A stretch of DNA of 52,085 nucleotides, counting the filler, from Jimgerdemannia flammicorona (taxonomy: Eukaryota): the NCBI GenBank assembly GCA_003990765.1. It is 2 parts of 2 records of this genome, joined end to end, with 100 filler letters (N's around TTAATTAATTAA, not from the genome) between each part and the next. Parts side by side here need not be neighbours in the genome. Positions count along the whole stretch, not along the records: positions 1 to 25,993 come from RBNJ01000768.1; 1 more part is not named here. One strand, written 5' to 3'. Below, one piece after another: positions 1,014-50,770 of the stretch; position 1 is the stretch's first letter; the number at the start of each line of letters is the position of its first letter. The notes under the pieces were generated by a model that was given only the letters and a program-made list of their open reading frames with translations, did not search any database and was not told the origin of the DNA. A program made the position numbers and the translations under genes.

Positions 1014-1130
1014 ATTTCTGTAAGTGCACAACCCCCAAGCCACTGAAATTATACGTCACCCTCTGAACAAGCCACTGAAATTACATGTGATCCTGAACAA
1101 ATCTGGAAATCACCTGCTTGATCACGAAGC

Positions 1131-1236
1131 TGAGTCAAACCAAAGTCACAGTGTACAAAGCTGAGTCAATACGAAGTCACGGAACACAAGATTTACATAA
1201 ACGGAATCTTATCAATCAGGACTAAATGTATATATA
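1131..1236 (+). promoter_or_regulatory. Putative promoter of the LTR-internal ORF: two TGAGTCA (AP-1/Gcn4-type) sites and a TATA-like element
   Basis: TGAGTCA at 1131-1137 and 1162-1168 inside a ~31-bp duplication. TATATATA at 1229-1236, about 70 nt upstream of ATG 1306. The same layout is present in the 3' LTR. Confidence 0.45.
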
Positions 1237-1305
1237 CCAAGTACCGAGATGTGTCGAATCAGAGAACCAAAACAAACAACAACCACAACTTCCAAACATA
1301 CAAAC

Positions 1306-2394
1306 ATGACCACTGAGATCTACAACTGTATCCATGCTGACATTTGGAATGCTATTGTCAACCGAGCTACACCCCCTCTGCCCCTCATGAATATCCATAG
1401 CCTAGCACCCCTCTACTTTGTGGAAGTCCGATGGAATGCTCTGAACATACTTAGCAAGACCCACCGAATCGGACAAATCTCAAGCTACTACCAGATCGGC
1501 CACCTCATGGTCGAACACTACTATGATACAGACATTACCCAGATGTCTCAACACTAGAAGCTCATCGCCTGCAAATATCGAGAACTTTTCTATGAGTATA
1601 GCACCTTTATTCTCCATCTCCGAGTTACTACCAGTGAAATGGTTACTACCCTGTCCTATGGCCAAATCGATGACATGATACAGGAACTCAACCAGAAGTA
1701 CCTCAAGTACATCGAAACCACAGACAGAACCTTCCCACACCCCAATGATCACATCCTGCAAATGCCCCAAGTTAGATATGCCATGAAAGACATCTACGAT
1801 ATAATCCACTTTGATGAAGATAAAGCAAAAGACAATGATCCCTCTGATACTGACATGACCTCAAGCCAAGGATCTCTGCCAACCCTGATCACTCTGCCAA
1901 CCTTGCCAATGAACTTACAATAGTTCATAACAATATATGAGACTTATTGGGACAATAACCACTAGCACGAATACTAACCCACATTCACCCCCAATTACTT
2001 CAACTATAATGAAGAGACCAGAGAACACAACCTGTACCTTCAGACAACCCTCGAGATCAAACCAACCACTCCACTACCCGAGTATGAGCAATATGAACCA
2101 CAGCTACCAGCTTACTATAACTCTGCGACTCATAGTACTGTAACCTACAGAAGATATGCAGACAGTGAATCCGACAAAAGTGAAAATGATGCACCCCTCC
2201 TTCACCCACCAATATCTTATCCAGCATATGAGACTGATGATGTCATCTTGTAGGACAGAGATGAAGTTCCAATATATTATTACCTCAGCAAATAAGGAGA
2301 AGTAATCCATGAACTACTCTTCTTAGACAACTACTTCATCAGAGATGATGCAATCGATGGTGATATCATCGAAGACTACCCAGACAGTGCCTAA
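1306..2394 (+). pseudogene. LTR(U3)-encoded accessory protein, ~362 codons, disrupted by C>T-type stops
   Basis: One reading frame from ATG 1306 (MTTEIYN...) to TAA 2394 (...DYPDSA). Most stops are sense codons in the 3' LTR copy. One TAG (1963-1965) is shared by both LTRs. Confidence 0.8.
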
Positions 2395-2583
2395 ACCCAT
2401 AAATAGCCTAGCAGTCATAGTATAGTTAGATTAGTATTGTATGACATAACTGTGAACTGACTCAGTAGTCAGACGATCTCTTGACATGTCAGATCACACT
2501 TATACTACGTGACTGCATTCTGACTCAGCAAGGTACTTAGTACTATATCCATATCTAGCATAGTCCAGATAGCCCCTCACTAG

Positions 2584-2711
2584 TATAAATACCCCCCCCC
2601 CAGACCTCAGAATCTTAGACTCGAACATACAAGAACATTCCTGAATACTTCCCCACAATATCTCCTCACATAACTACTCCTAGTATAGCAATATCATAAA
2701 TAGCAAATAAA
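2584..2711 (+). promoter_or_regulatory. LTR TATA box (TATAAAT) and polyadenylation signal (AATAAA)
   Basis: TATAAAT at 2584-2590 before a C-run, and AATAAA at 2706-2711. Both are conserved in all four A/B LTR copies that cover this region. Confidence 0.65.
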
Positions 2712-3070
2712 CCTATTCAATAATCCACAACCCACTCTTAAGTAAATCCACTCCCTGTTAGGTCCTACTCCTAACCCTGTCACGAAATTTCCATTGGGTA
2801 TTGTCTGCAGCGATACGCCAATTCAACTAAGCTGGTCTTAGTTTCTTGAACTTTCTGAAATACGGAAAATCCTGAACATCTAGAACTAGTCTGAAAAAAG
2901 ACTTTGGTTGAGATGTCAACCTGATCTTGAAATCAATAAGTGTAGAGGATGTATTCTATATGAAATTGATCTTGACCATAAGAAAACAGTCTTCCAGAAT
3001 ATCCAGAACCTCCAGAAAACCCTTTCAGAACTACGTAATGGTTACCCTAAAAAGCAACCCTCTTACAACT

Positions 3071-3082
3071 TGGTAGCAGTAG
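3071..3082 (+). promoter_or_regulatory. Primer-binding site, initiator tRNA-Met-like
   Basis: TGGTAGCAGTAG 3 nt after the LTR end. TGGTAGCAG is complementary to the ...CUGCUACCA 3' end typical of eukaryotic tRNAiMet. Confidence 0.75.
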
Positions 3083-5094
3083 TTTACAATTCAATTCCAC
3101 TTCAAGACACTTCCTTATCCTGCTACAAACCCTTCTGAGAATTCCTATAAGTTAGTATAAAGCCCAACCTCTGAACTGGAATTTATCCTGAACTATCTGA
3201 CAATCTGGAGAGAATTGAACCTGATGTATAAGGACAATTTGACCTCCACACTTGCAACAAGTGGGACAAACTTCATTTTAAGAAAGAAGTACTCCAGTTA
3301 AACCAGCACATAGGCGTAACCCTATTCACTGAACTCCTTGCACTACACCCAGCAAGTCATGATGAAGAAGGTCTTATTGAAGCCTTCTTTACTCTTCTCA
3401 ACAAAAGTTTTGTCAGCTCCACAAATCTGAGCGACCTAGGACAACCAGCAGCAGTCTTTCTAGCCTTAGTTCCTTACGAAGCCTAAGCCTCTGTAGCCAA
3501 GTAGCTCAACTCTACCAACTTTCATTGTACCAGGACCAAGACCACATTATACTACCGATTCCAGAATAGCAAGACCCACTATATTCTTAAAGAAGAAGCA
3601 AGAGAAACCCTTCATCAACTACCTGACCCCAAACCTGAAGCAGGCCCTGCTACAGCCCTACCTGAATCTGAAACCAATACCAAATCTGAACTTGACTTTG
3701 AATTAAGTCCATCTGAAATCAGATATACAACTGATTCTATCTACTTTGACACTGAGCAAATCCAATTACACAGGGACCAAACCAAAGAAGAGAAGGAGTA
3801 TCTCAGTGAATTCGATCCCAGATATACCACTGAAGAAGAAGTACCTCCATCAGGACAGAATACACCTACTCAGCAACAAACAGCTATCAATCAAGCCCTT
3901 ACTCCAGATCCTCAACTACTACTCCAGCAACTTACACAGACCCAAAGAACCCCATCACACTCTGCACCAGTACCTCAAGTAGTACCTGTAACACCACTAC
4001 CAGTAGTCCAACCACCTCCAGTAAACAACATGGCAAACCAACAGATTCTTGACCTCACAGCCCAGGTAGCCATAATGGCAGCAACCATTACTGCCTTAGC
4101 TGAACAGACCTGACCTACCAAAAATCTGAGCCTACCTACCTTCAATAGTACTGCACAAGAAGTCCAAAACTTCATTAGTATGGTTGATACCAACTTCGAA
4201 GCCAATCAATAGACCAATAAGTGAGTTGCTGACCGCATTCTGACAAACAATCAAGACCACACTCTGGAACAACTCTTTGCTACCACTACAGCCTATGTCT
4301 ACTAAGTTGTTACATTCTTCCGAGGACCTGCTGAAGAATGGTAGCGAACCCTTCCTGAAAAACCCCTCACATAGGATACCCAACCTGCAGTAGTTGCCCA
4401 GAATGCAACAAACAATACCCCAGGATATGGAGCCCATCCTGTAGCCCCTGGACTCAAATAACTCATAATTGCTCAATACCACAGCAAAACCATGATTGCT
4501 GAATCTTGAGTAAAACTCTGCAACCTCAAATTTGATATATATGGCAAAGAAGAATTCGAAACCTTTTGTACAAAACTCGAGTCACTCCTGAACACTGTTG
4601 GCCTAGGATATATCGCCAATAATGAAGCACAAAATGGTACAAGAGCAGACCATTTATTTGATGCCCTACCTGAATGACTTACTAGAAAAATCTGAGAGCA
4701 AGGCCACTCAGTTGGTTGTGATCATCAATAATAGTGCCTGGCAAGAATCAAGATCATGGTCAAGCGAATCCTAACAGCTGGACCAATTCTGCCCTGAAGA
4801 CAATTTAATAACAAGGAAAGGACTTGGACCAAGAAAGAAGAACCCAAGCATGAAGCATCCCGAGCTCCCTCCACATCCACCTCTTAGACACCCAGAAATC
4901 ACGAACCCACCCAGCCAAGTACCTTCAAGAAACTTACTGAAGGCAAAAGGAATGAATTTCGAAGAAGTGGAGCATGTTTCTATTGCCGAAAGACAGGACA
5001 TATGGCCAGTGCCTGCCCTAACTGAAAACTCTGAACAGCAACAAGAGCAACTGTTACCACTCTGCACCACCTCAACAATCTGACCACCAGAACA

Positions 5095-5505
5095 CTGGAC
5101 TTTGTCAAGTTAAGACAAACTGCTAAGGCCCCAACCAAAGGAAGTTAAAAAGCAGCTGGATACAACCTGTATGCAGCCGAAGAAGCTACAGTTTCCAACC
5201 GAGAAGTCAAACAAGTCTATACAGGAATCAGTATCCAAATCCCTGAAGGACATGTTGGAAGAATATGCTGTTGCAGTAGCCTAGCGTTAAAAGGACTCTC
5301 AGTAGAAGGAGGAGTCATTGACGAGGATTACACAGGCGAAATTATTGTTCTCATCTGAAACCACAGTTGGACACCCTTCAAGATCCCTATTGGCTTCTGC
5401 ATCACCCAGATTCTATTCAAAAAAATCGAGTCAACTCTGATAGTCAAGAAAGTCCCTGAATTACTGCCCACCATCCAAGGATCCAAAGGATTTGGCTCAT
5501 CAAAC
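5095..5505 (+). pseudogene. dut: dUTPase domain between gag and protease (element A)
   Basis: AAGYNLY (AAGYDLY in B), TGISIQIP, SSLALKG, GGVIDEDYTGEI and GSKGFGSS match trimeric dUTPase motifs. Confidence 0.92.
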
Positions 5506-8500
5506 AAGGCCCCAGCCCAATCTACCATGAGTAAAGAAGAACAATTCTATAAGAAGATCGAAGATGGATATGTACCAAGTGGTCGATGCCCTCATGACAT
5601 TGGAATGTACTCTTCCCAAATGATTGATGATTGCTTCTCTTGTATCAATGAACTGGCACAAAGAAGAACCAATAGAAGAAAAGCTCAAACAACTGAAATC
5701 AACACTATTGGATCAGACAAACTGCTCACCCTTAAGGCTTTTGTCAATGGAGCACCTGTTAAGATTATGATAGACAGTGGTGCCTCAGGCAACTTCATCA
5801 ATGAAGAGACAGCCAATAGACTCAAGGTCTTCACCTCTCCAGTACAGCAAACTCAAGCAGTTGCTACAGCTGATGAAACCTCACATGTTATTAGCAAAGA
5901 AGTCCGCAATCTACCCTTCCGAATTGGCGACTACCAAGTATATATTACCCTCCAAATTGTACCACTTCTTGATAATGAAATCATCCTTGAGACTCAATGG
6001 TTAAAACAAGAGAACCCCATAATTGATTGGGTAAACCATTCCCTGACCAACAAGAAATGATGCCACAACTTCAAACTATAAGGTGAAAAGGACCCACTCA
6101 ACTCTAGTGACCCTGGACCAAAGATCACCTATATCAATAAGCTACAACTTAAGAAATTGGCCAAGAAATGCCCTCTCTTCGCCATCTCCATCTGTCCATC
6201 CAAAGGAGAATCTGAGAACTCTGAAGAAGACTTTTCCAAAGTTGACAGCCATATCAGACCACTACTCCAGAAATTCCGAGACATATTCCCAAAGAAGCTC
6301 CCAAAAGGCCTACCTCCCAAATGAGCAGTAGACCATACCATCAAGACTATCCCAGATGCCAAACCAGCCTTCAAGTCAATCTACCACATGTCTCCAAGAG
6401 AAATTAATGTACTCAAGAAGGAAATCAATGAACTCCTAGAACAAGGATTCATCAGACCCAGTGTATCACCCTATGGTGCACCAGTCCTCTTCGTTGTCAA
6501 GAAAGGAGGAGACCTATGAATATGCATTAACTACCATGATCTCAATGAACAGACCATCAAGAACTGTTGCCCACTACCAAGGATCGATGAAATATTCGAT
6601 AGACTTACCAACCCACAATTCATGAGCTCTTTTAACCTGCAAAATAGTTACTAGCAAATTGCCATGAAAGAAGAAGATATCTACAAGACAGCTTTCCAAA
6701 CTCGCTATAGACACTTTGAGTTCCTAGTTATGCCCTTTGGCTTAACTAATGCTCCAGCAACCTTCCAGACACTGATGAATACCATTCTACATCCATACCT
6801 AGACAAATTTGTTGTTGTCTATATTGATGACATCCTAGTCTTCAGCAAAACTCTGGAGGAACATCTTGAACATCTTGAATTAGTACTACTAAAACTCCGA
6901 GAAAACCGACTCTTTGCAAAACTCAGCAAGTACAAATTTCTCCTGAAAGAAATTCAATTCCTTAGATACATTGTCACTCCAAATGGAATTAAAGTGGACT
7001 CTAGCAAAATCTCTGCAATCAAGGATTGGCCCAGACCCAAGAAGCTGAAAGACCTCCAGTCATTTCTGGGATTAGCAAACTATTACAGGCGATTTGTTGC
7101 CAACTTTGCTAAAATCACTACCACCCTCACCCAAATGACCAAGCACAGCAAGAAAACAAGAACAACCCTGGACTATGAAACAAGAGAAAGACTTCAACAA
7201 TCTTGTAACTTGGAGACCTGAACAAGATACCACCTTTCAAGCACTGAAAGATGCCCTGATAACCACACCAGTACTTCAAGTGGCAAACCCTGCCCTACCA
7301 TATGAAGTCACTACTGATGCCTCTGACCTAGCTCTTGGAGCAGTGCTCATGCAAGAAGGACACCCAGTGGCCTATCACTCCCACAAGTTCAATGATGCCG
7401 AAATCAACTACGCAACTCATGAGAAGGAAATGCTAGCCATTGTAGACACTCTGATCAAATAGCAACCATATCTAGAAGGAGCACACTTCACTGTATTGAC
7501 TGACCACAAGTCATTAGTCAACATCAAGACACAGGCTACCCTTTCCTGAAAGCAAGCCAGATGGATGAAAGTTCTCACCAACTTTGACTACGAAATCCAG
7601 TACTGCCCTGGCAAGGAAAATATTGTTGCCAATGCAATCTCCAGACCACCAATCGAAGAGGTTATCCAAACTCTGACCTTGGTTACCAACACTATCATGG
7701 AACAAATCATTACAGCATGTATTGATGATAAGGAAGCTCAAGCACTCCGAGAAATCCTGAACAATGATGATGCTGACAAGTATACCTGGTACAACTAATA
7801 CCAACTCAAGGACAATACTATCTACTATAAGGATAGACTGTATGTTCCAAACAACCGAGACCTCCAAAGGACTATCCTATTCGAATGTCATGATACACCT
7901 ATAGCTGGACATTTAGAATTTGATAAATGTTATGAAGTTATCTCCCAAAACTTCTATTGGCCCCATATGGCAGATCAGCTCAAAACCTACATCACTTCCT
8001 GTAATGTCTGCCAATGAAACAAGTCCTCAACACTAGCAAAACCTGGCTTACTCCACCCTATCCCAGTACCATCTGCAAATTGGGAACAAATCTCTATGGA
8101 CTTCATTGTACAACTACCCCAAACCAAGAATGGGAAAGATGCAATTGTTGTCTTTGTGGACTATCTCAGCAAACAAGCCCACTTTGTGCCTACTACCACT
8201 ACTGCAACAGCACCAGACATAGCCACACTCTTGTTTGACAATATCTTCCGCTATCATAGTCTTTCTAAGATCATTGTTAGTGACTGAGATCCGAAATTCA
8301 CCAGCCACTTTTGGAAAGTCCTCCATGCACACCTTGGAACAAAACTTGCACTATCCACAGCCTTTCACCCAGAAACTGATGGTCAAACTGAAAGAATGAA
8401 CCGAACTCTAGAACAAATGCTAAGGAACTATATTTCCTACAGACAAGATGACTGGTATGAACACCTCACCACAGTTGAGTTTGCCTATAACAATAGCAAG

Positions 8501-8854
8501 CAAGCCTCTCTTGGAATGACCCCATTCTTTACCAATACTGAACAAAATCCAAACACCCCTTTGACACTTATCTGAACTACTGAAGAACTCTCTACAGTCG
8601 AAGCTATTGAAGAATTCTTACTCCAAATGTGCAATTTAAGCCAAATTACCATTGAGAATTTATTGCGAGCTCAAGAACAACAGTCACAGTATGTTAACCA
8701 ATACCGCCAAGATGAAACCTTCGATATTGGAGAAAAAGTCCTACTAGATATCAGAGGATACCTAGTTGACATTTTTTTTTTTTATTTTTTTTATAGTCAC
8801 TTGGACTCCGCCTTTATTACCAGTCTATGAATAATTATACATCAATCCGACCCA

Positions 8855-11800
8855 CTATCCAATCCCCACCGGGGGGCCCCTCCCTACTTCCTCACGAATG
8901 AAAATCACCCTTTCACCAATGACCCCCACTCTCCCCCCACTTTGCTCACAGATTTTCTCCACCAAGCGGTGCCTCCGACCACCCCGCATCCCCCAACCCA
9001 GCCACCAGCCTGTTAAGGTATCTTCCATAAGCCTATGCCATCGCAGCAGCCGGTCCCCCAAGCTCTGCCTCCTCCCATCCTCAAAGACAAATAGCCAATG
9101 ACTGGCCAACCCCACCCAAATAGCCAAAGCCCAACCTAAAGTGAGCCACTCCTTCTCTATTCCCCCTACCAATCTAACCCTCAGGTCCTCCCATCGCCCT
9201 TGTACTCCATCACTCCTACCCTGTACCCCTAAGTGATCCCCAATTGTCCGCCAAAAGTCCCCCAACACCTCGCACTCTCCTAGCCAATGTTCTGGCATCT
9301 GTACATAACCTCCCTCCTGCCCCACATTATGGCACTCCTCACAGTTGAAGCAACCCCCTACAACCAGGTGCCCTGAGCGAAAATTGAGCATAACATTCCT
9401 CTGCAGCATGCGCCATCAGACCACCCAGTACTTTGGTGGCAGCTATGCTCTCACCGCAGCACTCCAGGTCCAAACACTATACCAGTTCCACTCTTTGCCA
9501 ATTCCAACTCCTTGCCAACCGCTAGGCCACAGATCCTGGCCTGGTCCCCTCTGGCATTCCATTCCATCACCAATGTCGAACTCAGCTAAAGGAGCACCAC
9601 CCAGCAGTATACAGTCCCATTTCCACATTGCTGGGCCCCAATCCTCTTCACCTTCATTCCCTTGCCAACGAATACCAATGCGATGCACTCCTTCTGCAAT
9701 TCCCCACCAAAATCCTCTATATTGTAGTTGGGCAGTATTCTGAAGCCCAACCAAGGAGAGGAGATCACCGGTTGAGCCCCTTGGCAATGTCCGCCTCTCC
9801 CATATCTTTTGTAACAGCGGAACCCATCCACCTCCTCTCAACTCCACTGCCCTCTTTAGCCACCATGCTCTCAAGCAGTGTAACCGTTTTGGGAAGTCAA
9901 CCAGCCCAAGACCACCTCTCACCACTGGCAGGGACAAGGTTTCCCAACTAATCTGACTCTGCCTGCCAGCCCAAATCCATCCTTTTGCTGCCTTCATCAA
10001 TCTCTTCACTACCCAGGCTGGGAAGTCCAGATGATATGCCAGATACCACAACTTTGGCAGCCAGTAGACATTCAAAACTGAGACCCGCCCTGCTAGGGAA
10101 AAATATCTACCCCCCTAACTCCACAGAGCCTCCTCCCAGATTCCAATCCTCTGCTCCCACCAAAGCTTGGGCAGAACTGACCCATAGACTGACAAGTAGA
10201 TACCTAAGTACCACACTGCTTCACCGGTGGGGACAATTGTTCCTATAACCTCCCCTCCCACCAGGCCATTACCAAGCATCATCGTCTCACACTTATGCCA
10301 ATTCAGCTTAGCTCCAGAATGCTCCTCATACCACTCCACAGTCCTCTTGAGCTCCTCAACATCAGCAATCGAACCCAAGCCCACCACCATGTCGTCAGCA
10401 AAGGCCCCAACCTTCCATCCTATGCCAAAGATAGAGAGCCCCACTATCCTCCACCTAATCCGGTCCATAAGTGGTTCCAGGGAAAGAGTATACAAAATGG
10501 GGGACAGTGGATCCCCCTGGGGCATGCCCCTTCCCAAGGAGAACGCTACTCCTCTATGTCCATTACACATGAGTGCAGCCCTACTCCCTTCCAGTAGGCT
10601 GACCATTATCAACCGGAATTGATGCAGTACCCCCATTCTATCCAGAACTTTTGCCAGCCAGACTCTCTGCACCCGGTCGTAAGCCTTCTCCTGGTCCAAG
10701 AAAACTAGACACCCATCTAGCCCACATGCTCTCACCCCTTCAATGATGCCATGCACCCAGGCGGTGCCATCCCTGATGAGCCGACCACTCACAAATCCCC
10801 TCTGCTCCACACTCACGACTTGCTGGGCCACCTTCTGTAATCTTGCCACCACCACCTTGGTCACCAACTTTCTGTCCATATCTAGCAGCATTATCGGCCG
10901 CCAGTTCTTCCAATCCTCCCGCCCTCCTTTGTTTTTGTAGAGCAGCGTCACCAGCCCAAGGTCCTGCTCCCCCACCCATCTACCCGTCTGTAGAATAAGG
11001 TCACACAACGCTGTCATCTCTCCCATCACCTCTGGGACTTCAACCATTCGCTTCCAAAAGTCCCAGGGCAGCCCATCCTCTCCAGGTGCCATACCGGACG
11101 TTGTCGCGGCAAGAACCTGGTGGATCTCACCTTCCTGTACAGGCATCACCAGGTCTCCTAGCCCTTCAACTTGTGGTAGGTGCCAATCCTCCAATGTATG
11201 TTCAATTGTAGTGGCATCCGCCCCACCTTCCTCCTCACTCCACAATCCACTCCATCTCTCCTTCAGCGATCCAAGAATGTCCTGTACACCATGCACCAGT
11301 ACACCATCAGAGTCCAAGACCCCTTCCCACCATTGCTGGACCCGCCTTGCCCTAAGGGCCCTTGAAAGAAGCTTGGAAGGCCTCTCACCTTCCTCCAGAT
11401 CCTGCCAATGAAGCCATGCTGCCAAGCTTTGTACCCTTGCCTCTTTCTCCTCCCGCAGCACTTGTTGAAGTTCCCCAACCTCCATTTTTGCCCTCAGTAA
11501 CCTCCAATCTTCTTCTCTCTCCACTATCATCAGCTGTGCCCACTCCTCCAGGAGCCTTGTCAATTGAGCAGAGGCCCAGCGCACCTTTTGTTTTTGCTGC
11601 TTCCCTGCCTCCTTGCCAGCCTCCTTCCAGTAAATCCTGGCCATTTCCTTCATCCTCATCCATCGAGTCCCAACTGCAGCCCCTTCCTGCCTCCAGGTCT
11701 CTACTCTCAGCTAAATGTCTTTAGCCCACTCATCCCACTGGGTCTTATCATCTAACAAAGAGGAATTGAGGTGCCAATGTCCAGGCCTATCCCCACTTCC

Positions 11801-12511
11801 CCCAAAGCACCCCTGTCCCAAAAGCCCCCAGTGATCCGACCATGGACACCATTCCACCTCCAATGATTTCCAAACATCTAGTCCCCAGCAGCAAGCTGTC
11901 AAAATCCAATCGATCCTAGTCCCCAGACCCCCTGCCCAATGTGTATAAATCCTCCTACTCCCCCAGCACTCCCTTCCAGTATCCAATAGTGCACTCAGCC
12001 CCTCGACTTCCTCCCATGCCACCAGCCCTCCACTCCTGCCCTCAGCATCTCGTCCTCTATCCGATCTATCCATCAGTATATCTCTAACCATATTGAAATC
12101 TCCCCCTAGCACATCCACCCCTGCCTCCGCAAGTAACCCACTCTCCAGTAGTCCCTTCACCCAATCGACTCTCTCACCCCATACCGCAGGGTAGTAGCAA
12201 GAACCAACTGTAACTGGTTCCCAGCCTACCCAAATCCACTCTCCCCAGATCAGTCTCTCCCCCCAGCACTGCACATTCTGTATCTTCCCTCTGCCTCTCC
12301 TAACCAAAATCCCAACCTTGCCCCTCCAAATCGCTACACCTCCCCATTCCTTCGTCCATTCTAACCTATCAGAGTCATCTTCGCACCGGACATCCTGCAA
12401 AAGGAAGAGATCGGCCTCCAATCCCTTTATCCAAGTAAAAATGTTCCTACGTCGAGAAGCACCCCATAACCCATTCACGTTCAAAGAGAAAATGTTTGTT
12501 GTATTGTTCAT
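8855..12511 (-). pseudogene. LINE ORF2: AP endonuclease, reverse transcriptase and C-terminal Cys/His motif, with a few in-frame stops
   Basis: SLNVNGL, GGDFN, TRIDWI and SDH (APE); PGEDGLP, WRPIMLL, LDQEKAYDRV, PQGDPLSP and AFADD (RT); CFNC...EHWLGEC. All four ORF-track segments are in one frame. The true stop may be 8825. Confidence 0.95.
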
Positions 12512-12544
12512 ATTGATGATATATGTGATGTCGCCAATCTGTCT

Positions 12545-14569
12545 CTACTGCTCCATGCTCATCTCCTCCTGTGCCCTGTCCAAATTATGTTCTGCAGCCA
12601 CCTCCTCTTCTTCAGCCCTCTGAGCCTCCAATCCAGCCAGTAGTTCATTCATCTCGCCATCGGCCTTCTCCTCAAACTCCTCTTGGTATTCGATGCATGC
12701 CTCCTGCCAGAGCTGTAGTCCATGTCACTTGTTCTAGCAGTATTCAGCTCTTTCTCCAGCAACAACTGCCATCTCCTCCTCCCTCTTCTTATCCACCTCA
12801 TATCCTTCCTCCTCCAGGTACACCGCAAGAATTTCTGCCTTCAATGCCTTCATCACACCATCTCTCTGCAGTATTCCGGCCCAGTGCTCATCACTCATCA
12901 CTCGCAAGTCCACTTCCCCCAACTCTTCTGCCGCCAGGTTATTCATCATCCGACACATCCAAAGCAAGTTCCCCACCTCTTTCCCCCCCGGAGTCACCAG
13001 CCTCTCTCCATCCAACATCGTGGTGTCAGCTCCAGCACTTGCAGACTCATCCCATACTTCCGGGACATCCACCAGTTCCTCCTCGCCATCTGCCTCCACC
13101 TGTCTCCCATATGCTACCTCTGGAACTCCGAATTGCACCTGCTGGGCCCCTCGCATTGGAACATCTTCCACCACCCTATTCCGGGAAGCCGGGCCATGTC
13201 TGATGAGAGGGGTAGGGGTAGGGGAATCCACCCAGTCCTCCTCCCACACCTCCAGTATACCATCTGCATACAGGTCCTCCCCCGCCTTCTTCTTGTCCTC
13301 CCCCACCTCCTTCTTGTCCTTCCCTTCCCTCTCGCCAGCCCAGACACTCGCTCCAGCTCCCCCTGAACCCTTCACCTTGCTCGCCTCCCCCAGCGGTCCA
13401 CTATCCAGCTTGGCCAACAACTCCTTCTGCCTCCTGCGCCCCTGAGCCCTTTCCCACTACTCCTTGGTCACTTGAATCCGCTTTCCATCCACCACCTCCA
13501 AGTGTATTGCCTCTTCAAAAGCCTCCCAAGCCTTCGCTCGCCTCTCCACAGCCCCTCCAAGCTCCTCAAGTGCTTCCAGTAAATCCTCCTCCTCTTCCTC
13601 ACTCCCCTTCACCCTTGTCACCTTACACAGGATCGCTCCCCAGACCATCACGGAAGGCCAATCCCTTGCCTTCCCAGTGGCTTCCTTCCCAGCCAGCCGA
13701 ATTCTCACATCCACGTTACCAGTCCTGAGTGAGGTCCCCTCCCAGACCCTGAACCCGATATCAACCACCTCACCATATTCTGCCATGAAATCCTCAACCC
13801 TCTTCCTTGTCTCCATTGCTGTCACCATCGGCACTCCCTTCACCAACAGTTGAACCACCCTGGGGTCCCACTTCAAGCACCGCACCATAGGAACACATAC
13901 CTCCCCAACCACCAATCTAACCTTCAGTGCCTCCTCCAGTGGTGCTGCCTCCTCAAAGCCCACCTCCACTCCTTCCAGTCCCTTCAAAAACTTCACAGAT
14001 GCTGCACCTGCCACCTGCTTAGCGATGAGCCCAAGCACCATTTTTGCTGTCACCGCCAGGCCCCGGAAGCATAGTGTGACCGCGAATGCCAAAATCGATT
14101 TCTTGAGTAACGGAGCCACTGCCAGACCTGTTACACCATCTGCCAAGTCCCCTTGCCTTCTAAGCCTCAGCCACTCAGCCTCGCCATCAGCCGTTACATC
14201 TGGATTTTTTTCCAGATCGACAGTCCCAACACCATCAGCAGTCACACCCCCCCCAGCCACTACTCCCTTAGCTCCACTGCCCCCCCTTCCAAGGGCCGCA
14301 CCCCCTGGCACTGTCTCCTTCTCGGTCCCCTTGCCCTTCTTCAGCCAGCCCTCCAGCCCCAACGCCTGCTGCCTCCCCTTCACCATCTCCGCGAAGCTTG
14401 CCCTCCCAGATCCTGATCCTCCACCACCTCCTCCTCCCCTTCCATGTCCACCCGCCAGCAGGCCCCTCATACCGCCCCCCAGGCCTGGCCCCCTCCCCAC
14501 CTGCTGCCAGTCAAAAGTGCTAGGGCCACCCTGCCCAGTATGCACCTCAGGTTGTCTGTCGGTTGCCAT
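12545..14569 (-). pseudogene. LINE ORF1 (~674 codons; Gly-rich N-terminus, probable RRM-like middle, acidic C-terminus)
   Basis: 13457-14569 and 12734-13420 are in frame and continue to TAG 12545-12547. ORF1 is in the same frame as ORF2 with an 11-codon spacer. Confidence 0.85.
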
Positions 14570-15254
14570 GTTGTTAGTCTCTTTTTGCTGAAAACGTTAT
14601 CGAAAGTGCCTTCCAAAGGTTGTGTAACCTGAATGGTACTGGAAAGAGATGGATACCTAGTTGACAACCTCAAGTACAGACCATCTACAAAGCTGAACAG
14701 CAAGTTCATTGGACCATTTGAAGTTATTGTACAAGTCTCTCTAACCTTCTACAAACTGGTACTACCAGATACCATTAAGATTCACCCAGTCTTTAATGTT
14801 CAACATCTCAAGTGATATAATGAGAATAATGATAAGCTATTTCCAAACTGGACCACCAAACCACCTGCACCTGTCATTATTAATGACTAAGAAGAGTATG
14901 AAGTTGAACAAATCCTCAACAAACATAGCAATAAGAGCTACCCTGAATACCTTGTCAAATGGAAAGGTTACCTGATCCACGATACAACCTGGGAACCCAA
15001 GACCAATCTCCAGAATGCTACCAACTTAGTTCAGGAATATGATTCCTTGAACAACTAGAATCAAATACTCTGCACCTATCCATACATACTATATACTATC
15101 CTCCCGAACATTATAATTATTGCAAACCAAACCAAGAACTCAGCAAAACAAGACAAGAATACTGACTCTCTGGAAAAAGGGCGAAACTAAAAGCAAGCCT
15201 ATTCTCTCTATATCACTGGAAAATTAGAAGGCCCTGACAAGGACGTCGAAAGCT

Positions 15255-15267
15255 AAGAAGGGGAGAG
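15255..15267 (+). promoter_or_regulatory. Polypurine tract of element A
   Basis: AAGAAGGGGAGAG immediately before the 3' LTR. Identical in element B at about 22915-22927. Confidence 0.9.
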
Positions 15268-15268
15268 T

Positions 15269-17328
15269 TGTAAGCACACAATCCCCAAGCCACCAAAATT
15301 ATATGTCACCCTCTGAACAAGCCACTGAAATCACACATGACCCTGAACAAATCTGGAAATCACCTGCTTGATCATGAAGCTGAGTCAAACCAAAGTCACA
15401 GCGCACAAAGCTGAGTCAATACGAAGTCACAGAACACAAGATTTACACAAACGGAATCTTACCAATCAGGACTAAATGCATATATACCAAGCACTGAGAT
15501 GTGTCAAATCAGAGAACCAAAACAAACAATAACTACAACTTCCAAATATACAAACATGACTACTGAGATCTACAACTGTATCTATGCTGACATTTGAAAT
15601 ACCATTGTCAACCGAGCTATACCCCCTCTGCCCTTTATGAATATCCATAGCCTAGCACCCCTCTACTTCATGGAAGCCCAATGGAATGCTCTGAACATGC
15701 TTAGCAAGGTCCACTGAATCAGACAAATCTCAAGCTACTACCAGATCAGCCACCTCCTGGAAGACATGGTTGAACACCATCATGATATAGACATTACCCA
15801 GATGTCTCAACACCAGAAGCTCATCGCCCACAAACATCGAGAACTTTTCTATGAGTATAGCACCTTTATTCCCCACCTCCAAGTTACTACCAGCGAAATG
15901 GTTGCTACCCTATCCTATGGCCAAATCGATGACATGATACAGGAACTCAACCAGAAGTATCTCGAGTATGTTAAAACTACAGACAGAACCTTCCCACACT
16001 CCAATGATCATATCCTGCAAATGCCCCAAGTTAGATATGCCATAAAAGACATCTACGATATAATCTACTTTGATGAAGACAAAGCAGAAGACAATGATCC
16101 CTCTGATGCTGACATGACCTCAAGCCAAGGATCTCTACCAACCCTGATCACTCTGCCAACCTTGCCAATGAACTTACAACAGTTCATAACAACATACGAG
16201 ACTTATTGGGACAATGACCACTAGCATGAATACCAACTCACATTCATCCCTGATTACTTTAACTACAATGAAGAGACCAGAGAACACAACCTGTACCTTC
16301 AGACAACTCTCGAGATCAAACCAACCACTCCACCACCCGAGTACGAGTGACATGAACCACAGCCACCAGCTTACTATAACTCTGTGACTCATAGTGCTGT
16401 AACCTACAGAAGATATGCAGACAGTGAATCTGATGAAAGTGAAAATGATGCACCCCTCCTTCGCCCACCAATACCTTATTCAGCATATGAGACTGATGAT
16501 GTCATCTTGTGGGATGGAGATGAAGTTCCAATGTATTATTACCTCAGTAAACAAGGAGAAGTAATCCGTGAACCACTCTTCTTAGATGACTACTTCATTA
16601 GAGATGATGCAATCGATGGTGATGTTATCAAAGACTACCCAGACAGCGCCTAAACCCATAAATAGCCTAGCAGTCATAGTATAGTTAGATTAGCATTGTG
16701 CAACATGACTGTGAACTGACTCAGCAGTCAGACGATCTCTTGATATGTCAGATCACACTTGTACTATATGACTGCATTCCGACTCAGCAAGGCACTTAGT
16801 GCTATATCCATATCTAGCATAGTCCAGATAGCCCCTCACTAGTATAAATACCCCCCCCCCAGACCTCAGAATCTCAGACTCGAACACACAAGAACATTTC
16901 TGAATACTTCCCCACAATATCCCCTCACACAACTACTCCTAGTATAGTAATATCATAAATAGCAAATAAACCTATTCAATAACCCACAACCCACTCTTAA
17001 GTAAATCCACTCTCTGTTAGGTTCTACTCCTAACTCTATTACGAAATTTCCTAATTGGGTATTATCTGCAGTGATACGCCAATTCAACTAAGCTGGTCTT
17101 AGTTTCTTGAACTTCCTGAAATATGGAAAATCCTGAATATCTAGAACTAGTCTGAAAAAGGACTTTGGTTGAGACATCAACCTGATCTTGAAATCAATAA
17201 GCGTAGAGGACGTATTCCATACAAAATTGATCTTGACCATAAGAAAACAATCTTCCAGAATATCCAGAACCTCTAGAAAACTCTTCCAGAACTATGTAAC
17301 GGTTACCCTAAAAAGCAACCCTCTTACA
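15269..17328 (+). repeat. Element A 3' LTR
   Basis: Direct repeat of 1019-3067, followed by TSD ATTTC. Confidence 0.96.
15556..16653 (+). pseudogene. Second copy of the LTR-encoded accessory ORF (~365 codons)
   Basis: Same frame throughout. Differs from the 5' copy mostly by transitions, plus one in-frame 9-bp indel. Confidence 0.8.
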
Positions 17329-17559
17329 ATTTCCCCACACCAAAAGCCTTTCTATTTCTAAAATTGCTCTTTGGCATGTCCTGCTCATTGCCCACATCAT
17401 CACCAGCCCAACTCTCACCAACATTGATGTGGAACTATAAGCCTGGCTCCAATTAAAAGTTGTCCTCATTATTTTCAGGTTCTTGCATAACAGCCTTGGT
17501 TTTGGCAATCTGTGGGAAGTAGTGACTAAAAATCAAAAGAGGTGCATTCTCTTAACTAT

Positions 17560-18433
17560 TGTAAAAAAAATATAGATAGGAGTATTCTTACATATCTCTT
17601 CTTGGGCGTCAAGTGTTCCTGCACCTGCCCGGTCAGTATCATGGTTTCGGTATTGAACATCTCCTTCCTTTATCTGCTTATATCGAGATACCATAGAGTG
17701 TAGTATTTTCTGCATTGACATAAAAAACACATTAATAATGTAATCCAAATTAAATCAATGAGCCAGAGGGATTCCACTGACCTTGGTTTGAAGCATTATA
17801 CGAGCCACTTTGATGACCTCGCCGATTTCGCCATATGACTCAGGAATGTCAAAATTGGCCAACTTCACCGACATGTAAAATCCAGTACCTATATAGATAA
17901 CAAGTAAGACATGAATAGAAAATGAAGAAGATATAAAGCCCGGCATGAGGAGTTTTGGGCTTGCATGTAGGACTTTTTTTAGAAAGTGCCCTGCCACCAG
18001 CTGCTGTGATCATTTCCATCAAAGATTGGTGCATATCACATAGAGTTTTCTGCACTCTGAGTGTATTCGAAAGCACCTTTTTGTCATTTGAAATCCTTGA
18101 GCCTGCTCATTCACATAAAGAGAACTCTCGTCTCCATGGCAGCTCTTTTCCAAGATCGTGACGCTGTGAACGAGAATTCTATAAGTGAATTATTCTGATA
18201 CCGATAGCAAAAAAAACCCCACAGAAACCATACTGTAAAGAACCAAATATGATATCCCTCAGCATTTTCACAGCTGTCCTATGCACTGGTTCGGCATTCA
18301 CAGGATGCCCGAGATACAACCTCACCACTAATTTGATCAATTGTAAGTAATTAATCACAGCAGTGGCAAATATAATAATAATAAACAACTTACAAGTGGC
18401 TATCTACTATACTATCCATGCAAGAAAACACAT
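17560..18433 (-). pseudogene. 3' part of an intron-containing host hypothetical-protein gene (resembles a multicopy Mucoromycota/Glomeromycotina family, possibly nuclease-like), disrupted
   Basis: Spliced reading ...DSHF|GEVVSRAS...AEGYHIWFFT|RHDLGKELPWRREFSLCE*AGS...LSNTLRVQKTL...LLMPGFISS...YIGTGFY...FDIPESYGEIGEVIKVARIMLQTK. GT-AG introns, e.g. 18328-18393. Stops and a frameshift present. Family assignment is from recall, and the 3' end is approximate. Confidence 0.6.
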
Positions 18434-19639
18434 ATCAAAAGGTTCATGAACTGCACTTATCAACTCAAGACTAAGATATACTGTGACTATACAAGATCTC
18501 ATTACTTAGCAGAAGCAAAACGCATTTGAACAACTCTATTTGCTTTATCTGTGTCACCTCTATTGGAGAGTGACAGACGCTTCATCTGAACTCAAGAAAG
18601 CCGACAACATTGAAACCAATCTCAAGCCATCCACGTGATAGATATTACTACTAGAAATTGCCTCAGATTACAGAAAATATCATTTCCGAGAGGTTCGAAC
18701 CCCCAGCCACGACATTGGGAGCCCTCGCCCTAGACAAGAATGGCCAGTCCTCGCAAATGCATCAGCAGACCAAAAAAAAAGAGAACCAAGACCTGTTATC
18801 CTTGTACAACCACCGCCACCAAGGATAGCCTTAATCTTGCAAGAGATAGAAGTGACGATATCTTGAAACTGATGAGGTCAGAAGTCAGAAAACTGCTCAG
18901 ACTTTGCCAGCGATGATGTCATCAATAGTGATGTCATCAAGGACTAACCAGACAGTGCCTAAATCTATAAATAGCCTAGCAGTCATAGTATAGTTAGATT
19001 AGCCTTGTATGACGTGACTGTGAACTGACTCAGCAGTCAGATGATCTCTTGACATATCAGATCACACTTGTACTATGTGACTGCATTCTGACTCAGCAAG
19101 ACACTTAGTGCTACATCCATATTTAGTATAGTCCAGATAGCCCCTCACTAGTATAAATACCCCCTCCCCCAGACCTCAGAATCTCAGACTTGAACAATCT
19201 GAATACAACTCTTGAGCACTTCCTCACAATATCCCTTTACACAATACTCCTAGTATAGCAATATCATGAATAGCAAATAAACCTATTTCATAACCCACAA
19301 ACCACTCTTAAGTAAATCCGCTCCCTGTTAGGTTCTACTCCTAACCCCATCACGAAATTTCCTAATTGGGTATTGTCTGCAGCGATATGCCAATTCAACT
19401 AAGCTAGTCTTAGTTTTTTGAACTTTCTGAAATACGGAAAATCCTGAACATCTAGAACTAGTCCGAAAAAGGACTTTGGTTGAGATGTCAATCCAATCTT
19501 AAAATCAATAAGCGTAGAGGACGTACTCCATATGAAATTGATCTTGACCATAAGAAAACAGTCTTCCAGAATATCCAGAATATCCAGAAAACCCTTCCAG
19601 AACTACATAACGGTCACCCTAAAAAGTAACCCTCTTATA
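18434..19639 (+). repeat. Element B 5' LTR, 5'-truncated
   Basis: Matches 23213-24418. Confidence 0.92.
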
Positions 19640-20605
19640 ACTTGGTAGCAGTAGTTTACAATCCAATTCCGCTTCAAGACACTTCCTCACCCGACTACAA
19701 ACCCTTCTGCGAATTCCTACAAGTTAGTATAAAGCCCAACCTCTGAACTGGAATTTATCCTGAACCATCTGACAATCTGGAGAGAATTGAACCTGACGTA
19801 CAAGGACAATTTGACCTCCACACCTGCAACAAGTGGGATAAACTTCATTCAAAGAAAGAAGTACTCAAGTTAAACCAGCAAATAGGCAAAACCCTTTTTA
19901 CCGAACTCCTTGCACTACACCCAGCAAGTCAAGATGAAGAAGGTCTTATTGAAGCCTTCTTTACTCTTCTCAACAAGAGTTTTGTCAGCTCCACAAATCC
20001 GAGTGACCTAGGATAACCAGCAGCAGTCTTTCTAGCCTTAGTTCCTCATGAAGCCCAAGCCTCTGTAGCTAAGTGGCTCAACTCTACCGACTTTCACCAC
20101 ACCAGGACTAAGACTGCATTATATGTACTACCGATTCCAGAACAGCAAGGCCCGCCATATTCTTAAGGAAGAAGCAAGAGAAACCCTTCACCAACTACCT
20201 GACCCCGAACCTGAAGCAGGCCCTGCTACAGCCCTACCTGAATCTGAAACCAATACCGAACCTGAACTTGACTTTGAATTAAGTTCATCTGAAATCAGAT
20301 ATACAACTGATTCTGTCTACTTTGACGCTGAGCAAACCCAATTACACAGGGACCAAACCGAAGAAGAGGAGGAGTATCTCACCGAATTCGATCCCGGATA
20401 CACCACTGAAGGAGATACATGCCCATCAGGACAGAATACACCTACACAGCAACAAACAGTTATCTATCAAGCCCTCACTCCAGACCCACAACTACTACTC
20501 CAGCAGCTTACACAGACTCAAAGAACCCCATCACACTCTGCACCAGTACCTCAAGTAGTACCAGTAACACCACTACCAGCAGTCCAACCGCCTCCAGCAA
20601 TCAAC

Positions 20606-22848
20606 ATGGCAAACCAACAGATTCTTGACCTCATAGCCCAAGTAGCTATAATGGCAGCAACTATCACTGCCTTAGCTGAACAGACCTGACCTACCAAAAG
20701 TCTGAGCCTACCTACCTTCAATAGCACTGCACAAGAAGTCCAAAACTTCATTAGTATAGTTGACACCAACTTCGAAGCCAATCAATGGACTAATGAGCGA
20801 GTTGCTGACCGCGTTCTAATAAACAATCAAGACCACACCCTGGAACAACTCTTTGCTACAACTACAGCCTATGTCTACTGAGTTGTTACATTCTTCTGAG
20901 GACCTGCTGAAGAATGGTGGCATACCCTTCCTAAAAAACCCCTCACATGGGATACCCGACCTGCAGTAGTTGCCCAGAATGCAGCAAACAATGCCCCAAG
21001 ATACGGAGCCCATCCTGCAGCCCCTGGACTCAAATAACTCATGATTGCTCAATACCGCAGCGAAACCATGATTGCTGAATCTCGAGTAAAACTCTGCAAC
21101 CTCAAATTTGATGTATATAGCAAGGAAGAATTCAAAACCTTCTGTACAAAACTCAAGTCACTCCTGAACACTGTTGGCCTAGGATACATTGTCAATGATG
21201 AAGCATGAAATAGTACAAGAGCAGACCACTTATTCGATGCCCTGCCTGAATGGCTTACTAGAAAAATCCAAGAACAAGACTGCCCGGTTGGTTGTGATCA
21301 CCAACAATGGTATCTGGCAAGAATCAAAACCATGGTCAAGCAAATCCTAACAGCTGGACCAATTCTGCCCCGAAGGCAATTCAACAACAAGGAAAAGACT
21401 TGGACCAAGAAAGAAGAACCCAAGCATGAAGCATCTCGAGCTCCCTCCACATCTACCTCTTGGACACCCAGAAATCATGAACCTACCCAGCCAAGTACCT
21501 TCAAGAAACTTACTGAAGGTGAAAGAAATGAACTTCGAAGAAGCGGAGTATGCTTCTATTGCTGAAAGACAGGACACATGGCCAGTGCCTGCCCCAACCG
21601 AAGACCCCGAACAGCAACATGAGCAACTGTTACCACTCTTCACCACCTCAACAACCTGACCACCAGAACACTAGACTTTGTCAAGTTAAGACAAACTGCT
21701 AAGGCCCCAACCAAAGGAAGTCAAAAAGCAGCTGGATATGACCTGTATGCAGCCGAAGAAGCTACAGTTTCCAACCGAGAAGTCAAACAAGTCTATACAG
21801 GAATCAGTATCCAAATCCCTGAAGGACATGTTGGAAGAATATGCTGTCGCTGCAGCCTAGCACTGAAAGGACTCTCAGTAGAAGGAGGAGTTATTGACGA
21901 GGATTATACAGGCGAAATTATTGTCCTCATTCGAAACCACAGTTGGACACCCTTCAAGATCCCTATTGGCTTCTGCATCACCCAGATCCTATTCGAAAAA
22001 ATTGAGTCAACCCTGATAGTCAAGGAAGTCCCTGAACTACTACCCACCATCTGAGGATCCAAAGAATTTGGCTCATCAAACAAAGCCCCAGCCCAACCTA
22101 CCATGAGCAAAAAAGAACAATTCTACAAGAAGATAGAAGATGGATATATACCAAGTGGCTGATGCCCTCATGGTATTGGAATGTACTCTTCCCGAATGAT
22201 TGATGATTGCTTCTCTTGTGTCAACAAACTGGCTCAAAGAAGAACCAACAGAAGAAAGGCTCCTACAACTGAAATCACCACAATTGGATCAGACAAACTG
22301 CTCACCCTTAAAGCTTTTGTCAATGGAGCACCTGTCAAGATTATGATAGACAGTGGTGCCTCAGGCAACTTCATTAATGAGGAAACAGCCAACAGACTCA
22401 AGGTCTTCACCTCTCCAGTACAGCAAACTCAAGCAGTTGCTACAGCTGATGGAACCTCACATGTTATTAGCAAAGAAGTCCACAATCTACCCTTCCGAAT
22501 TGGCGACTACCGAGTATATGTTACCCTCCAAATCGTACCACTTCCTGACAATGAAATCATCCTTGGGACTCCATGGTTAAAACAAGAGAACCCCATAATT
22601 GATTGGGTAAACCATTCTCTGACCATTAAGAAAGGACACCACAACTTCAAACTATAAGGTGAAAAGGACCCACTCAACTCTAGGAACCCTGGACCAAAGA
22701 TCACCCACATCAACAAGCTATAACTCAAGAAATTGGCCAAGAAATGTTCTCTCTTTGCCATCTCCATCTGACCATCCAAAGGAGAACCTGAGAACTCTGA
22801 AGAAGATTTTTCCAAAGTTGACAGCTGTGTCAGACCACTACTCCAGAA
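20606..22848 (+). pseudogene. Element B gag-dUTPase-protease remnant
   Basis: MANQQILDL start, CFYC knuckle, AAGYDLY dUTPase motif, DSGASGNF protease motif. Confidence 0.9.
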
Positions 22849-22928
22849 GAACCATCCAAATGGTACAATAACACCAGAACAAATTAGAAGGCCCCGACAA
22901 GGACGTCGAAAGCTAAGAAGGGGAGAGT

Positions 22929-26093: not shown

Positions 26094-26203
26094 TGGCAGG
26101 TTGTTATAATTGGTGGTGAAGATATCTTGATATTTGTTGAAAAGTTCTACTAGTTGTTGCTGTTGTTGAGGTGTCAATTCTTCTCCAATGTTGGTGGAAG
26201 GCT

Positions 26204-30203: not shown

Positions 30204-30761
30204 TTCATTATCACTTTCTTCTGATTCTGGTTCAGGTTTAAATTCTGATTCTGATTCACTTTCTGAACTGTCACTAGAGATAGAGGTGCTTGGGTATCTT
30301 GAAGATGGTGTTCTGGTCCTTGGGTGAGGTGGAATAGGTCTAGGTATTCTTGTAGGAGCTACTTCTGGTTCTGCAAGGGGTTGTGGTAGGGGTTCTATTG
30401 GTGAGATTGGTGGGACGGGTGTGGGGTGTCTGGCTGTAAAGTATTGGGTCCAGGTAATAAAGTCTTCTAGTTCTTGTGCAAGTTCTCCAAAATCTCTAGC
30501 AGGACTGCCTGTATTGTCTGGTTGATCTGGTTGAGGATTTCGAGCTGTACTGTCTCCTGCTTCTGGTTGGGATCCTTCTGATACTGGGTAGTTGGCAAGT
30601 CTTGAGGTGATTACTTCTCTTCCTGTCCAAATGCTAGTGATGACTGGTTCTCCTGTAGTGGCAGAGGTTGGTGTTGTATCAAATGTATCCAGTTTGACTG
30701 TGGGTTCTTGTGAGCTGAAAAGTCATGTTGATTTTAAAATCTTCCCAGTTGAGTCCCCAAA

Positions 30762-43221: not shown

Positions 43222-43223
43222 TT

Positions 43224-43240
43224 TGGGGGCTCAACTGGAA
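43224..43240 (+). promoter_or_regulatory. Primer-binding site, tRNA-Pro-like
   Basis: TGGGGGCTCAACTGGAA 2 nt after the LTR. TGGGGGCTC matches the complement of the tRNA-Pro 3' end. Confidence 0.75.
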
Positions 43241-50731: not shown

Positions 50732-50770
50732 AGAACAGTCTGGGACAGACTATCTTTTAGTAGGGGCTGA

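Follow-up and report, generated by a model that had tools for sequence, protein, structure and literature searches.

A probable accessory protein gene within the long terminal repeats of a dUTPase-bearing Ty3/gypsy retrotransposon of Jimgerdemannia flammicorona

Complex retroviruses have accessory and regulatory genes at the 3' end of the genome that partly overlap the unique 3' (U3) region of the long terminal repeat (LTR), such as nef of human immunodeficiency virus (HIV) and bel/tas of foamy viruses. The product of foamy virus tas, which has an internal promoter, is an acidic transactivator. LTRs are generally treated as non-coding control regions, and LTR annotation pipelines overlook genes in them. 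We analyzed a 52,085-nucleotide stretch of DNA (hereafter, the window) from Jimgerdemannia flammicorona (GenBank assembly GCA_003990765.1), made of two parts joined by 100 filler letters, of which positions 1 to 25,993 come from RBNJ01000768.1. We found that a Ty3/gypsy retrotransposon in this window, element A, carries an open reading frame (ORF) of about 1.1 kb in each of its LTRs. The best overall explanation is probably that this frame is an accessory protein gene located in U3 of the 2-kb LTR of a dUTPase-bearing Ty3/gypsy element. All positions below are positions in the window.

The closest parallel in position is the sag gene of mouse mammary tumor virus (MMTV). Sections of PMC4667437 used here place sag in the LTR, describe LTRs as "ordinarily non-coding", and list several sag promoters, one of them inside U3. 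Like sag, the ORF in the LTR of element A (LTR A) is a sense protein gene of approximately 1 kb lying mostly or entirely in U3, and is thus present in both LTRs and in solo LTRs. The two differ in several ways. The host of sag is a betaretrovirus, whereas that of the LTR A ORF is a Ty3/gypsy retrotransposon without env. Unlike sag, the LTR A ORF starts past the polypurine tract and is wholly inside U3, and its product is acidic, with no hydrophobic anchor in the translations. Pfam (E up to 10) found no sequence relation to sag.

Several LTR retrotransposons contain additional ORFs (aORFs), including the env-like genes of Athila/Bagy2, gene23 of Grande, and those of RIRE2, Retand and Botrytis Boty. 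As described in the part of PMC7264820 used here, aORFs are internal genes, located in most cases between pol and the 3' LTR; they are conserved within a family, often have unknown function, and in some cases, such as Grande gene23, have their own promoter. The LTR A ORF is also an extra gene besides gag-pol. However, its position is not internal, between pol and the 3' LTR, but past the polypurine tract and within the LTR, so that every element has it twice and solo LTRs retain it. As an idea, a self-contained cassette in an LTR has a precedent in Cassandra, a terminal-repeat retrotransposon in miniature (TRIM), whose LTRs hold a gene-like unit, related to 5S rDNA, with its own promoter (10.1101/2023.07.14.548913, in part). 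That unit is an RNA gene of RNA polymerase III in a non-autonomous plant element, whereas LTR A would hold a protein gene of RNA polymerase II in an autonomous-type Ty3/gypsy element. A search of the window against Rfam found nothing.

The backbone of element A also has described counterparts. In the portion of PMC2864245 used here, dUTPase-bearing gypsy elements are reported from basidiomycetes and Tuber, including PosPlaTy3 of Postia and elements of Phanerochaete, with the dUTPase at varying positions. Element A resembles these fungal Ty3/gypsy elements in its gag-dUTPase-protease-reverse transcriptase-RNase H-integrase type of organization. That portion of PMC2864245 describes no LTR-borne ORF, and a legend names an "add. 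ORF" of unknown function. A survey of open-access literature by titles and abstract openings found no protein gene inside a retrotransposon LTR. The arrangement is best known from MMTV and is rarely described for retrotransposons.

The reading frame in U3

The ORF and the stop codon common to its two copies are located as follows:

1306-2394, + strand: LTR-borne ORF, 5' copy; 362 codons (1306-2391) plus TAA at 2392; 6 in-frame stops
15556-16653, + strand: LTR-borne ORF, 3' copy; 365 codons plus TAA; 4 in-frame stops
1963-1965 (5' copy) and 16222-16224 (3' copy), + strand: shared TAG, codon 220

In both LTRs, the ORF lies wholly in U3, in sense and in the same orientation as gag-pol. It starts 287 nt past the LTR start and ends 190 nt ahead of the main TATA box. 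The original prediction had described a frame of approximately 362 codons from 1306, a single in-frame indel of 9 bp between the two copies, and a TAG at 1963/16222 shared by both LTRs. We read the frame, its TAA at 2392 and the shared TAG directly from the sequence, and alignment placed the sole indel as 9 bp missing from the 5' copy after 1505. The claim of a ~1.1-kb ORF held for the coding frame but not for its being open as it stands. The 5' copy has in-frame stops at 1555, 1921, 1963, 1975, 2251 and 2293, and the 3' copy at 15595, 15715, 16222 and 16348; the TAG at 1963/16222 is the only one common to both. Both copies in the window are dead.

The frame could be a chance long open frame on a G-poor strand: the + strand of the LTR contains only 15-16% G, and the LTR of a second gypsy family in the window (LTR B) also holds a frame of 164 codons, of low complexity. 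The stop pattern argues against this. Stops present in both copies numbered 1 in the ORF frame vs 14 and 30 in the other two + frames, and 5000 composition-preserving shuffles of the ORF span had a mean of 18.2 stops and never fewer than 6. Base composition within the ORF was also periodic by codon position, with p about 1e-12 (chi2 65.8 and 71.6; p 3e-12 and 2e-13). Position 1 is enriched in G and position 2 is poor in it, as in gag, protease and reverse transcriptase of the same element (p 4e-8 to 1e-3), and the overall base composition of the ORF matches that of gag-pol. The flanking LTR sequence on either side of the ORF had no periodicity (p 0.8 and 0.21). Together with the existence of homologues at the protein level, the shuffles and the periodicity bring the idea of a chance frame close to refuted.

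We found these homologues by scanning 1.84 billion representative proteins with the LTR-borne ORF, which gave three matches. P0001 (247 aa, no stop) matched codons 112-361 with 158/250 identities (63%) and 200/250 positives; it has two 2-residue gaps relative to the ORF, and its C-terminal end is identical in position. P0002 (128 aa), which its source labels "hypothetical protein", matches codons 1-125 at 86% identity, begins at the same ATG/methionine, and has the 3 codons that are missing from the 5' LTR copy. The third match, P0003, is a 436-aa repeat protein aligned to codons 108-145 (E 3.3e-05, 33% identity), and we judged it to be a repeat-inflated chance match. Word-index searches of 5.8 billion clusters, with a single protein and with a profile, gave nothing new. 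Among 2581 candidates from a profile search with A1, P0001 and P0002 were the only relatives, and a search for shorter relatives found only P0002 among 102 candidates. Within the window, tblastn with P0001 and P0002 found only the two LTR A copies, plus an 18-codon remnant (E 1.9) in the LTRs of a sister element (E2, see below).

An ORF segment that drifted randomly to 63% amino acid identity was stop-free in 0.5%, 0.8% and 3.9% of simulations (kappa 1, 2 and 10, respectively; 1000 runs per model). We regard the frame statistics, together with this drift test, as establishing that the LTR-borne frame is coding. The original prediction that the LTR carries a genuine protein-coding gene is borne out by the stop pattern, the codon periodicity and the open homologue at 63% identity.

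Reverse transcription copies U3 into both LTRs at every transposition. Because the gene is located in U3, it is written into both LTRs each time, and the predicted duplication at each transposition follows from this location and the known mechanism. A conserved gene located in U3 has two copies per element and is not lost when LTRs recombine with each other, so its dosage scales with the number of LTRs and not with that of intact elements.

The element that carries the ORF has the following parts:

1019-3067, + strand: 5' LTR of element A, 2049 bp, termini TGTAAG...CTTACA (self-BLAST and alignment)
15269-17328, + strand: 3' LTR of element A, 2060 bp (self-BLAST and alignment)
1014-1018 (left) and 17329-17333 (right, directly past the 3' LTR): target-site duplication ATTTC
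3071-3082, + strand: TGGTAGCAGTAG, similar to a primer-binding site (PBS), three bases past the 5' LTR end; also found behind the E2 5' LTR
15255-15267, + strand: polypurine tract AAGAAGGGGAGAG, adjoining the 3' LTR; the same tract lies ahead of the E2 3' LTR (22929)
3175-8773, + strand: decayed gag-pol of element A (Pfam)
8774-15200 (5' end approximate), - strand: nested non-LTR retrotransposon resembling a long interspersed nuclear element (LINE) (Pfam, and poly(T) from 8774)

Self-BLAST of the window aligned 1019-3068 with 15269-17329 at 91.8% identity over 2061 columns; the LTRs proper are 92.3% identical. The LTR pair has TG...CA ends and is flanked on both sides by ATTTC, and the PBS-like site and polypurine tract lie next to it, as is typical of Ty3/gypsy elements. 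Therefore, element A (1019-17328) is one bona fide insertion of a dUTPase-bearing Ty3/gypsy retrotransposon. The original prediction ended the LTR at 2711. That position is the end of the AATAAA, and the LTR runs 356 bp further, to 3067.

Pfam domains in the frame of 4468 (dUTPase 1.5e-28, RVT_1 7.3e-26, RVP_2 8.7e-10, zf-CCHC 0.0015) correspond to gag with a CCHC knuckle, dUTPase, protease and reverse transcriptase. The frame of 7202 contains RT_RNaseH (6.4e-32), Integrase_H2C2 (8.5e-19) and rve (4.3e-06). The order gag, protease, reverse transcriptase, RNase H, integrase is that of Ty3/gypsy elements, and the dUTPase sits between the zinc knuckle and the protease. The LINE-like element is inserted in the region encoding the integrase C-terminus, and its poly(A) reads as poly(T). 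Its - strand has Pfam matches to Exo_endo_phos (1.8e-07) and RVT_1 (2.3e-30) and a long ORF1-like frame (12725-15139), and only four TAG codons interrupt ORF2. Upstream of element A, positions 1-313 are the last 313 bp of a further LTR of family A type that is cut by the window start and ends in CTTACA at 313.

Transition-only mutation and the shared stop

We found that the repeat copies in the window differ almost only by transitions. The LTRs proper of element A differ by 157 transitions and 0 transversions; a few flanking bases bring the counts to 159 and 3. Ratios of transitions to transversions in three LTR pairs were 157:0 (1019/15269), 59:0 (18434/23213, the E2 pair, 95.1% identical) and 99:6 (41911/50771). 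Taking C or G as the original state, the rates in the LTR A pair were 29% at CpA, 28% at CpG, 12% at CpC and 2% at CpT, so that CpA and CpG changed 10 times more often than CpT. The observed/expected ratio of CpG in the window is 0.335. Near-exclusive C>T and G>A differences between repeat copies, with a dinucleotide preference, are what is found after repeat-induced point mutation (RIP), and the mutation here is RIP-like hypermutation or, alternatively, deamination of methylated cytosine.

This process accounts for the dead state of the ORF. The stops found in only one copy all arose from CAA, CAG, CGA or TGG by C>T or G>A. Using 28 stop-prone codons and the measured per-copy rates, we calculated that an ORF intact at insertion should have acquired 8.4 private stops and 0.96 shared stops. 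We observed 8 and 1. The probability of at least one shared stop under parallel hits is 0.62. The shared TAG need not be ancestral, and is consistent with each copy having been hit in parallel. We conclude that element A probably inserted with an intact gene. The mutation process that killed the ORF copies acted after insertion and also destroyed gag-pol.

Because the TAG is present in both LTR copies, the original prediction allowed for a native protein of about 220 aa, ending at codon 220. Several observations count against this. P0001 has W in the column of codon 220 and continues at 63% identity to the same C-terminus, and from codon 220 to the TAA at 2392 the two copies have no further stop in common. 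The codon periodicity was computed over the whole span, and one shared stop is what parallel hits predict (0.96 expected). We consider a native product of ~220 aa highly improbable. It had also been suggested that the codon at 1963 was CAG. P0001 argues against this: because it has W at this position, the change was likely TGG to TAG and not CAG to TAG, and the native protein would likely have about 365 aa. P0002 ends directly before a codon that is CAG in the LTR A copies, which suggests, by inference only, that a mutation of the same kind truncated its copy.

The many in-frame TAG and TAA codons might also indicate a ciliate-type code in which TAA and TAG encode Q. We rejected this: the 3' copy has TGA stops in the same frame, code 6 gave no selective rescue of open frames, and C>T and G>A changes account for all stops.

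Two implications extend beyond this gene. With transitions making up nearly all differences between repeat copies, LTR divergence here does not indicate age, and it is no clock where RIP-like mutation acts. Likewise, a stop common to both LTRs of an element need not be ancestral under such mutation, which matters for judging the coding capacity of repeats.

Promoter-like motifs and routes of expression

The sequence around the ORF contains the following candidate control elements:

1125-1237, + strand: promoter-like block with two TGAGTCA, a CCAAT-like box and TATATATAC; putative function
1238-1305, + strand: A/C-rich leader, including an in-frame upstream ATG at 1249
2458-2590, + strand: main LTR promoter region with TGACTCA at 2458 and 2521 and TATAAAT at 2584-2590; kept in all four aligned LTR copies
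2706-2711, + strand: AATAAA poly(A) signal

The motifs named in the original prediction are present. Two TGAGTCA sites lie at 1131-1137 and 1162-1168 (15381 and 15412 in the 3' LTR). The CCAAT-like box reads ATCAATCAG at 1211-1219, with the intact form ACCAATCAG at 15461-15469 in the 3' LTR, and the TATA-like element is TATATATAC at 1229-1237. The leader ahead of the 1306 ATG, predicted as A-rich, is A/C-rich on direct reading, and the main TATA box (TATAAAT) and AATAAA were also read directly. Promoter-like, gene and poly(A) motifs of the right kinds, considered as motifs only, thus occur in the right order in LTR A.

The arrangement of these motifs resembles that of the main promoter. Each TGAGTCA belongs to one unit of an imperfect 31-bp tandem repeat, and the two sites are 98 and 67 bp ahead of the upstream TATA-like box, with the CCAAT-like box between. 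In the main promoter, TGACTCA sites are 126 and 63 bp ahead of TATAAAT. TGA(C/G)TCA (TGASTCA), which we take to be the Gcn4/AP-1 site, lies upstream of TATA as in a Gcn4/AP-1-type promoter; Gcn4 controls Ty elements. Each LTR A has four TGASTCA sites (1131, 1162, 2458 and 2521) vs 0.47 expected (Poisson P 0.0014, in a test chosen after the sites were seen), and a fraction of 0.0001 of 20000 LTR shuffles reached four. Another repeat lies closer to the LTR start, beside the end recognized by integrase: an imperfect 32/30-bp tandem repeat at 1037-1098 (AAGCCACTGAAATTA...CTGAAC, twice).

Both copies also have an in-frame ATG 19 codons upstream of the 1306 ATG (1249-1251 and 15499-15501). Because the 1249 ATG is directly behind the TATA-like box, it would probably be left out of a transcript starting from that box, and would be included in read-through RNA.

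Based on these motifs, the predicted own promoter, expression from solo LTRs and Gcn4/AP-1-type control are plausible. Transcription would start at about 1260, driven by the two TGAGTCA sites, the CCAAT-like box and the TATA-like box. The transcript would pass through the A-rich leader and the ORF and be polyadenylated at the LTR AATAAA. Either LTR, and also a solo LTR, could then produce this monocistronic mRNA of ~1.5 kb. We regard transcription from such a U3-internal promoter as an evenly balanced proposition.

Alternatively, the gene could be real and have no promoter of its own, being read, in the manner of MMTV sag or HIV nef, from the 3' end of the element RNA as a spliced subgenomic message or from an internal promoter. 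The upstream TGAGTCA/CCAAT block would then be a distal enhancer of the main LTR promoter. By established LTR transcription, the genomic RNA holds the whole 3' U3 and hence the ORF at 15556-16653. TGASTCA sites also occur near the main TATA box, and all four could serve one promoter. The sections of PMC4667437 used here describe MMTV sag transcripts that originate at the 5' LTR U3/R junction, in env, or inside U3. It counts against this alternative that TATA-like and CCAAT-like boxes lie 70-95 bp upstream of the 1306 ATG (context ACAAACATGA), followed by an A-rich leader, and that the 287 nt of U3 ahead of the ORF leave room for a promoter. We consider expression from element RNA somewhat unlikely.

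If the U3-internal promoter is real, LTR A would be a non-retroviral parallel to MMTV sag, and would provide a way to test whether solo LTRs stay biologically active for a transposon family.

The product, the ORF-less sister element and neighboring features

The ORF reads as an acidic product (isoelectric point 4.6) with 55 Asp+Glu vs 23 Lys+Arg and 33 Tyr, and its net charge becomes more negative toward the C-terminus. Structure models had a predicted local distance difference test score (pLDDT) of 31.4 for the full-length protein and 49.0 when restricted to the N-terminal 128 aa. At this low confidence, they contain five helices in the first ~125 residues and little structure past residue 220. 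Composition and models together suggest an acidic protein of ~365 aa that is helical in its N-terminal part and, over the C-terminal half, largely disordered and rich in Tyr, Asp and Glu.

Searches with the product for known domains and folds were negative. No Pfam family was matched at E up to 0.01. With the limit raised to 10, the first of four members still had no match, and 1/4 members matched TIP120 (E 0.11). A sequence-profile search of the PDB gave 0 hits, and Foldseek with the N-terminal 128-aa model gave 0 matches in the PDB at E up to 0.001. Relaxing Foldseek to E up to 10 gave 244 matches, all of them generic helical bundles, which we regard as meaningless. The ESM Atlas, which includes P0001 (own model pLDDT 0.39), gave no usable feature hit for it and structural rows with template modeling (TM) scores of at most 0.30. 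With P0002 it gave feature hits of 0.93 with at most 155/256 features in common and recognition below the mark, which we took as chance.

A role in trans for the element is possible. The product could be an activator of LTR transcription, or an adaptor against silencing by the host. We offer this tentatively, because of the acidic composition and by analogy with retroviral accessory genes.

The window contains a second, shorter element, E2 (18434-24418), that bears on these proposals. Its LTRs are as follows:

22929-24418, + strand: E2 3' LTR, 1490 bp, ORF-less type (self-BLAST and alignment)
18434-19639, + strand: E2 5' LTR, truncated at its 5' end and without the first ~284 bp; same ORF-less type

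Internally, E2 resembles element A as far as the protease and from there skips to the same polypurine tract; we classify it as a non-autonomous derivative of family A. The E2 3' LTR starts with TGTAAG, and the first ~50-90 nt are similar to LTR A. The last 728 nt are also common to both LTRs, and include the last ~17 ORF codons, both TGACTCA sites, TATAAAT, AATAAA and the U5 region. Between these, the promoter-like block and the ORF up to its last ~17 codons are absent, and approximately 0.6-0.7 kb of unrelated, non-coding sequence is found in their place. This substitute is interrupted by stops in every frame and lacks codon periodicity (p 0.69).

The short LTR was more likely derived from the long one than the reverse, because the retained C-terminal codons belong to a conserved protein (P0001 covers them). 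The segment absent from E2 starts just upstream of the promoter-like block and ends inside the ORF. This boundary fits the loss of a promoter-plus-ORF module, in a single case. Both E2 LTRs are of the short type; therefore, the ORF-less variant was reverse-transcribed at least once, and the gene is dispensable in cis. Just upstream of the truncated E2 5' LTR is a 53-bp stretch (18342-18394) reading TGTAAG...CTTACA, which could be an extremely deleted LTR or a chance occurrence.

The retrotransposition of an ORF-less variant would also be expected if the ORF were a passenger: all or part of a host gene, brought into U3 by transduction and retained for some time with no role for the element. Transduction of host sequences by LTR elements is known, usually in few copies, as stated in the part of PMC7264820 used here. 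However, there was no host-type homologue of the ORF, only P0001 and P0002, in the 1.84 billion representatives and the 5.8 billion clusters. The ORF also matches gag-pol in base composition and codon-position pattern, and a still-open relative at 63% identity implies long persistence under constraint. We consider a passenger quite unlikely.

An accessory gene of the element is the explanation we prefer, and several points weigh against it. The ORF-less LTR variant transposed without the gene in cis and is less mutated than LTR A (95.1% vs 92.3% identity). Only two relatives were found in ~15 billion proteins, both from contigs of ~1 kb and known as protein sequences alone. The drift test is weakened by protein databases holding only open frames, and its weakest model gave P 0.039. 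The in-frame ATG at 1249 makes the start codon of the ORF uncertain. The promoter motifs are short and were assessed post hoc, and TGASTCA across the whole window occurs 14 times vs 11.9 expected, a number reached by 30/100 shuffles. Finally, the lack of a Pfam, PDB or Atlas relative and the poor models (pLDDT 31 and 49) support no particular function.

A broader reading would make the LTR a mobile autonomous gene. Insertions and solo LTRs would deposit a stress-inducible, lineage-specific acidic regulator that feeds back on LTR transcription or blunts silencing. We consider this doubtful; if true, solo LTRs would stay functional helpers for the family and not be mere scars.

The window contains other elements and an apparent host gene. 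The second gypsy family (B) is represented by a copy at 41911-52051 (+ strand) with LTRs of ~1.3 kb (41911-43219 and 50771-52051), and by an inverted partial copy at 26096-31029 (- strand) with a dUTPase at 26357-27310 (Pfam 7.4e-26). The 164-codon frame in LTR B (42234-42726) is stop-free after merging of the two copies, and its low-complexity product is rich in Pro, Ser and Glu. Considered as a possible relative of the LTR A protein, it proved unrelated. Positions 38788-40480 (+ strand) appear to be host-gene exons, and one translation includes FGLGPHACLRRNLA, which we take to resemble the haem-binding motif of cytochrome P450.

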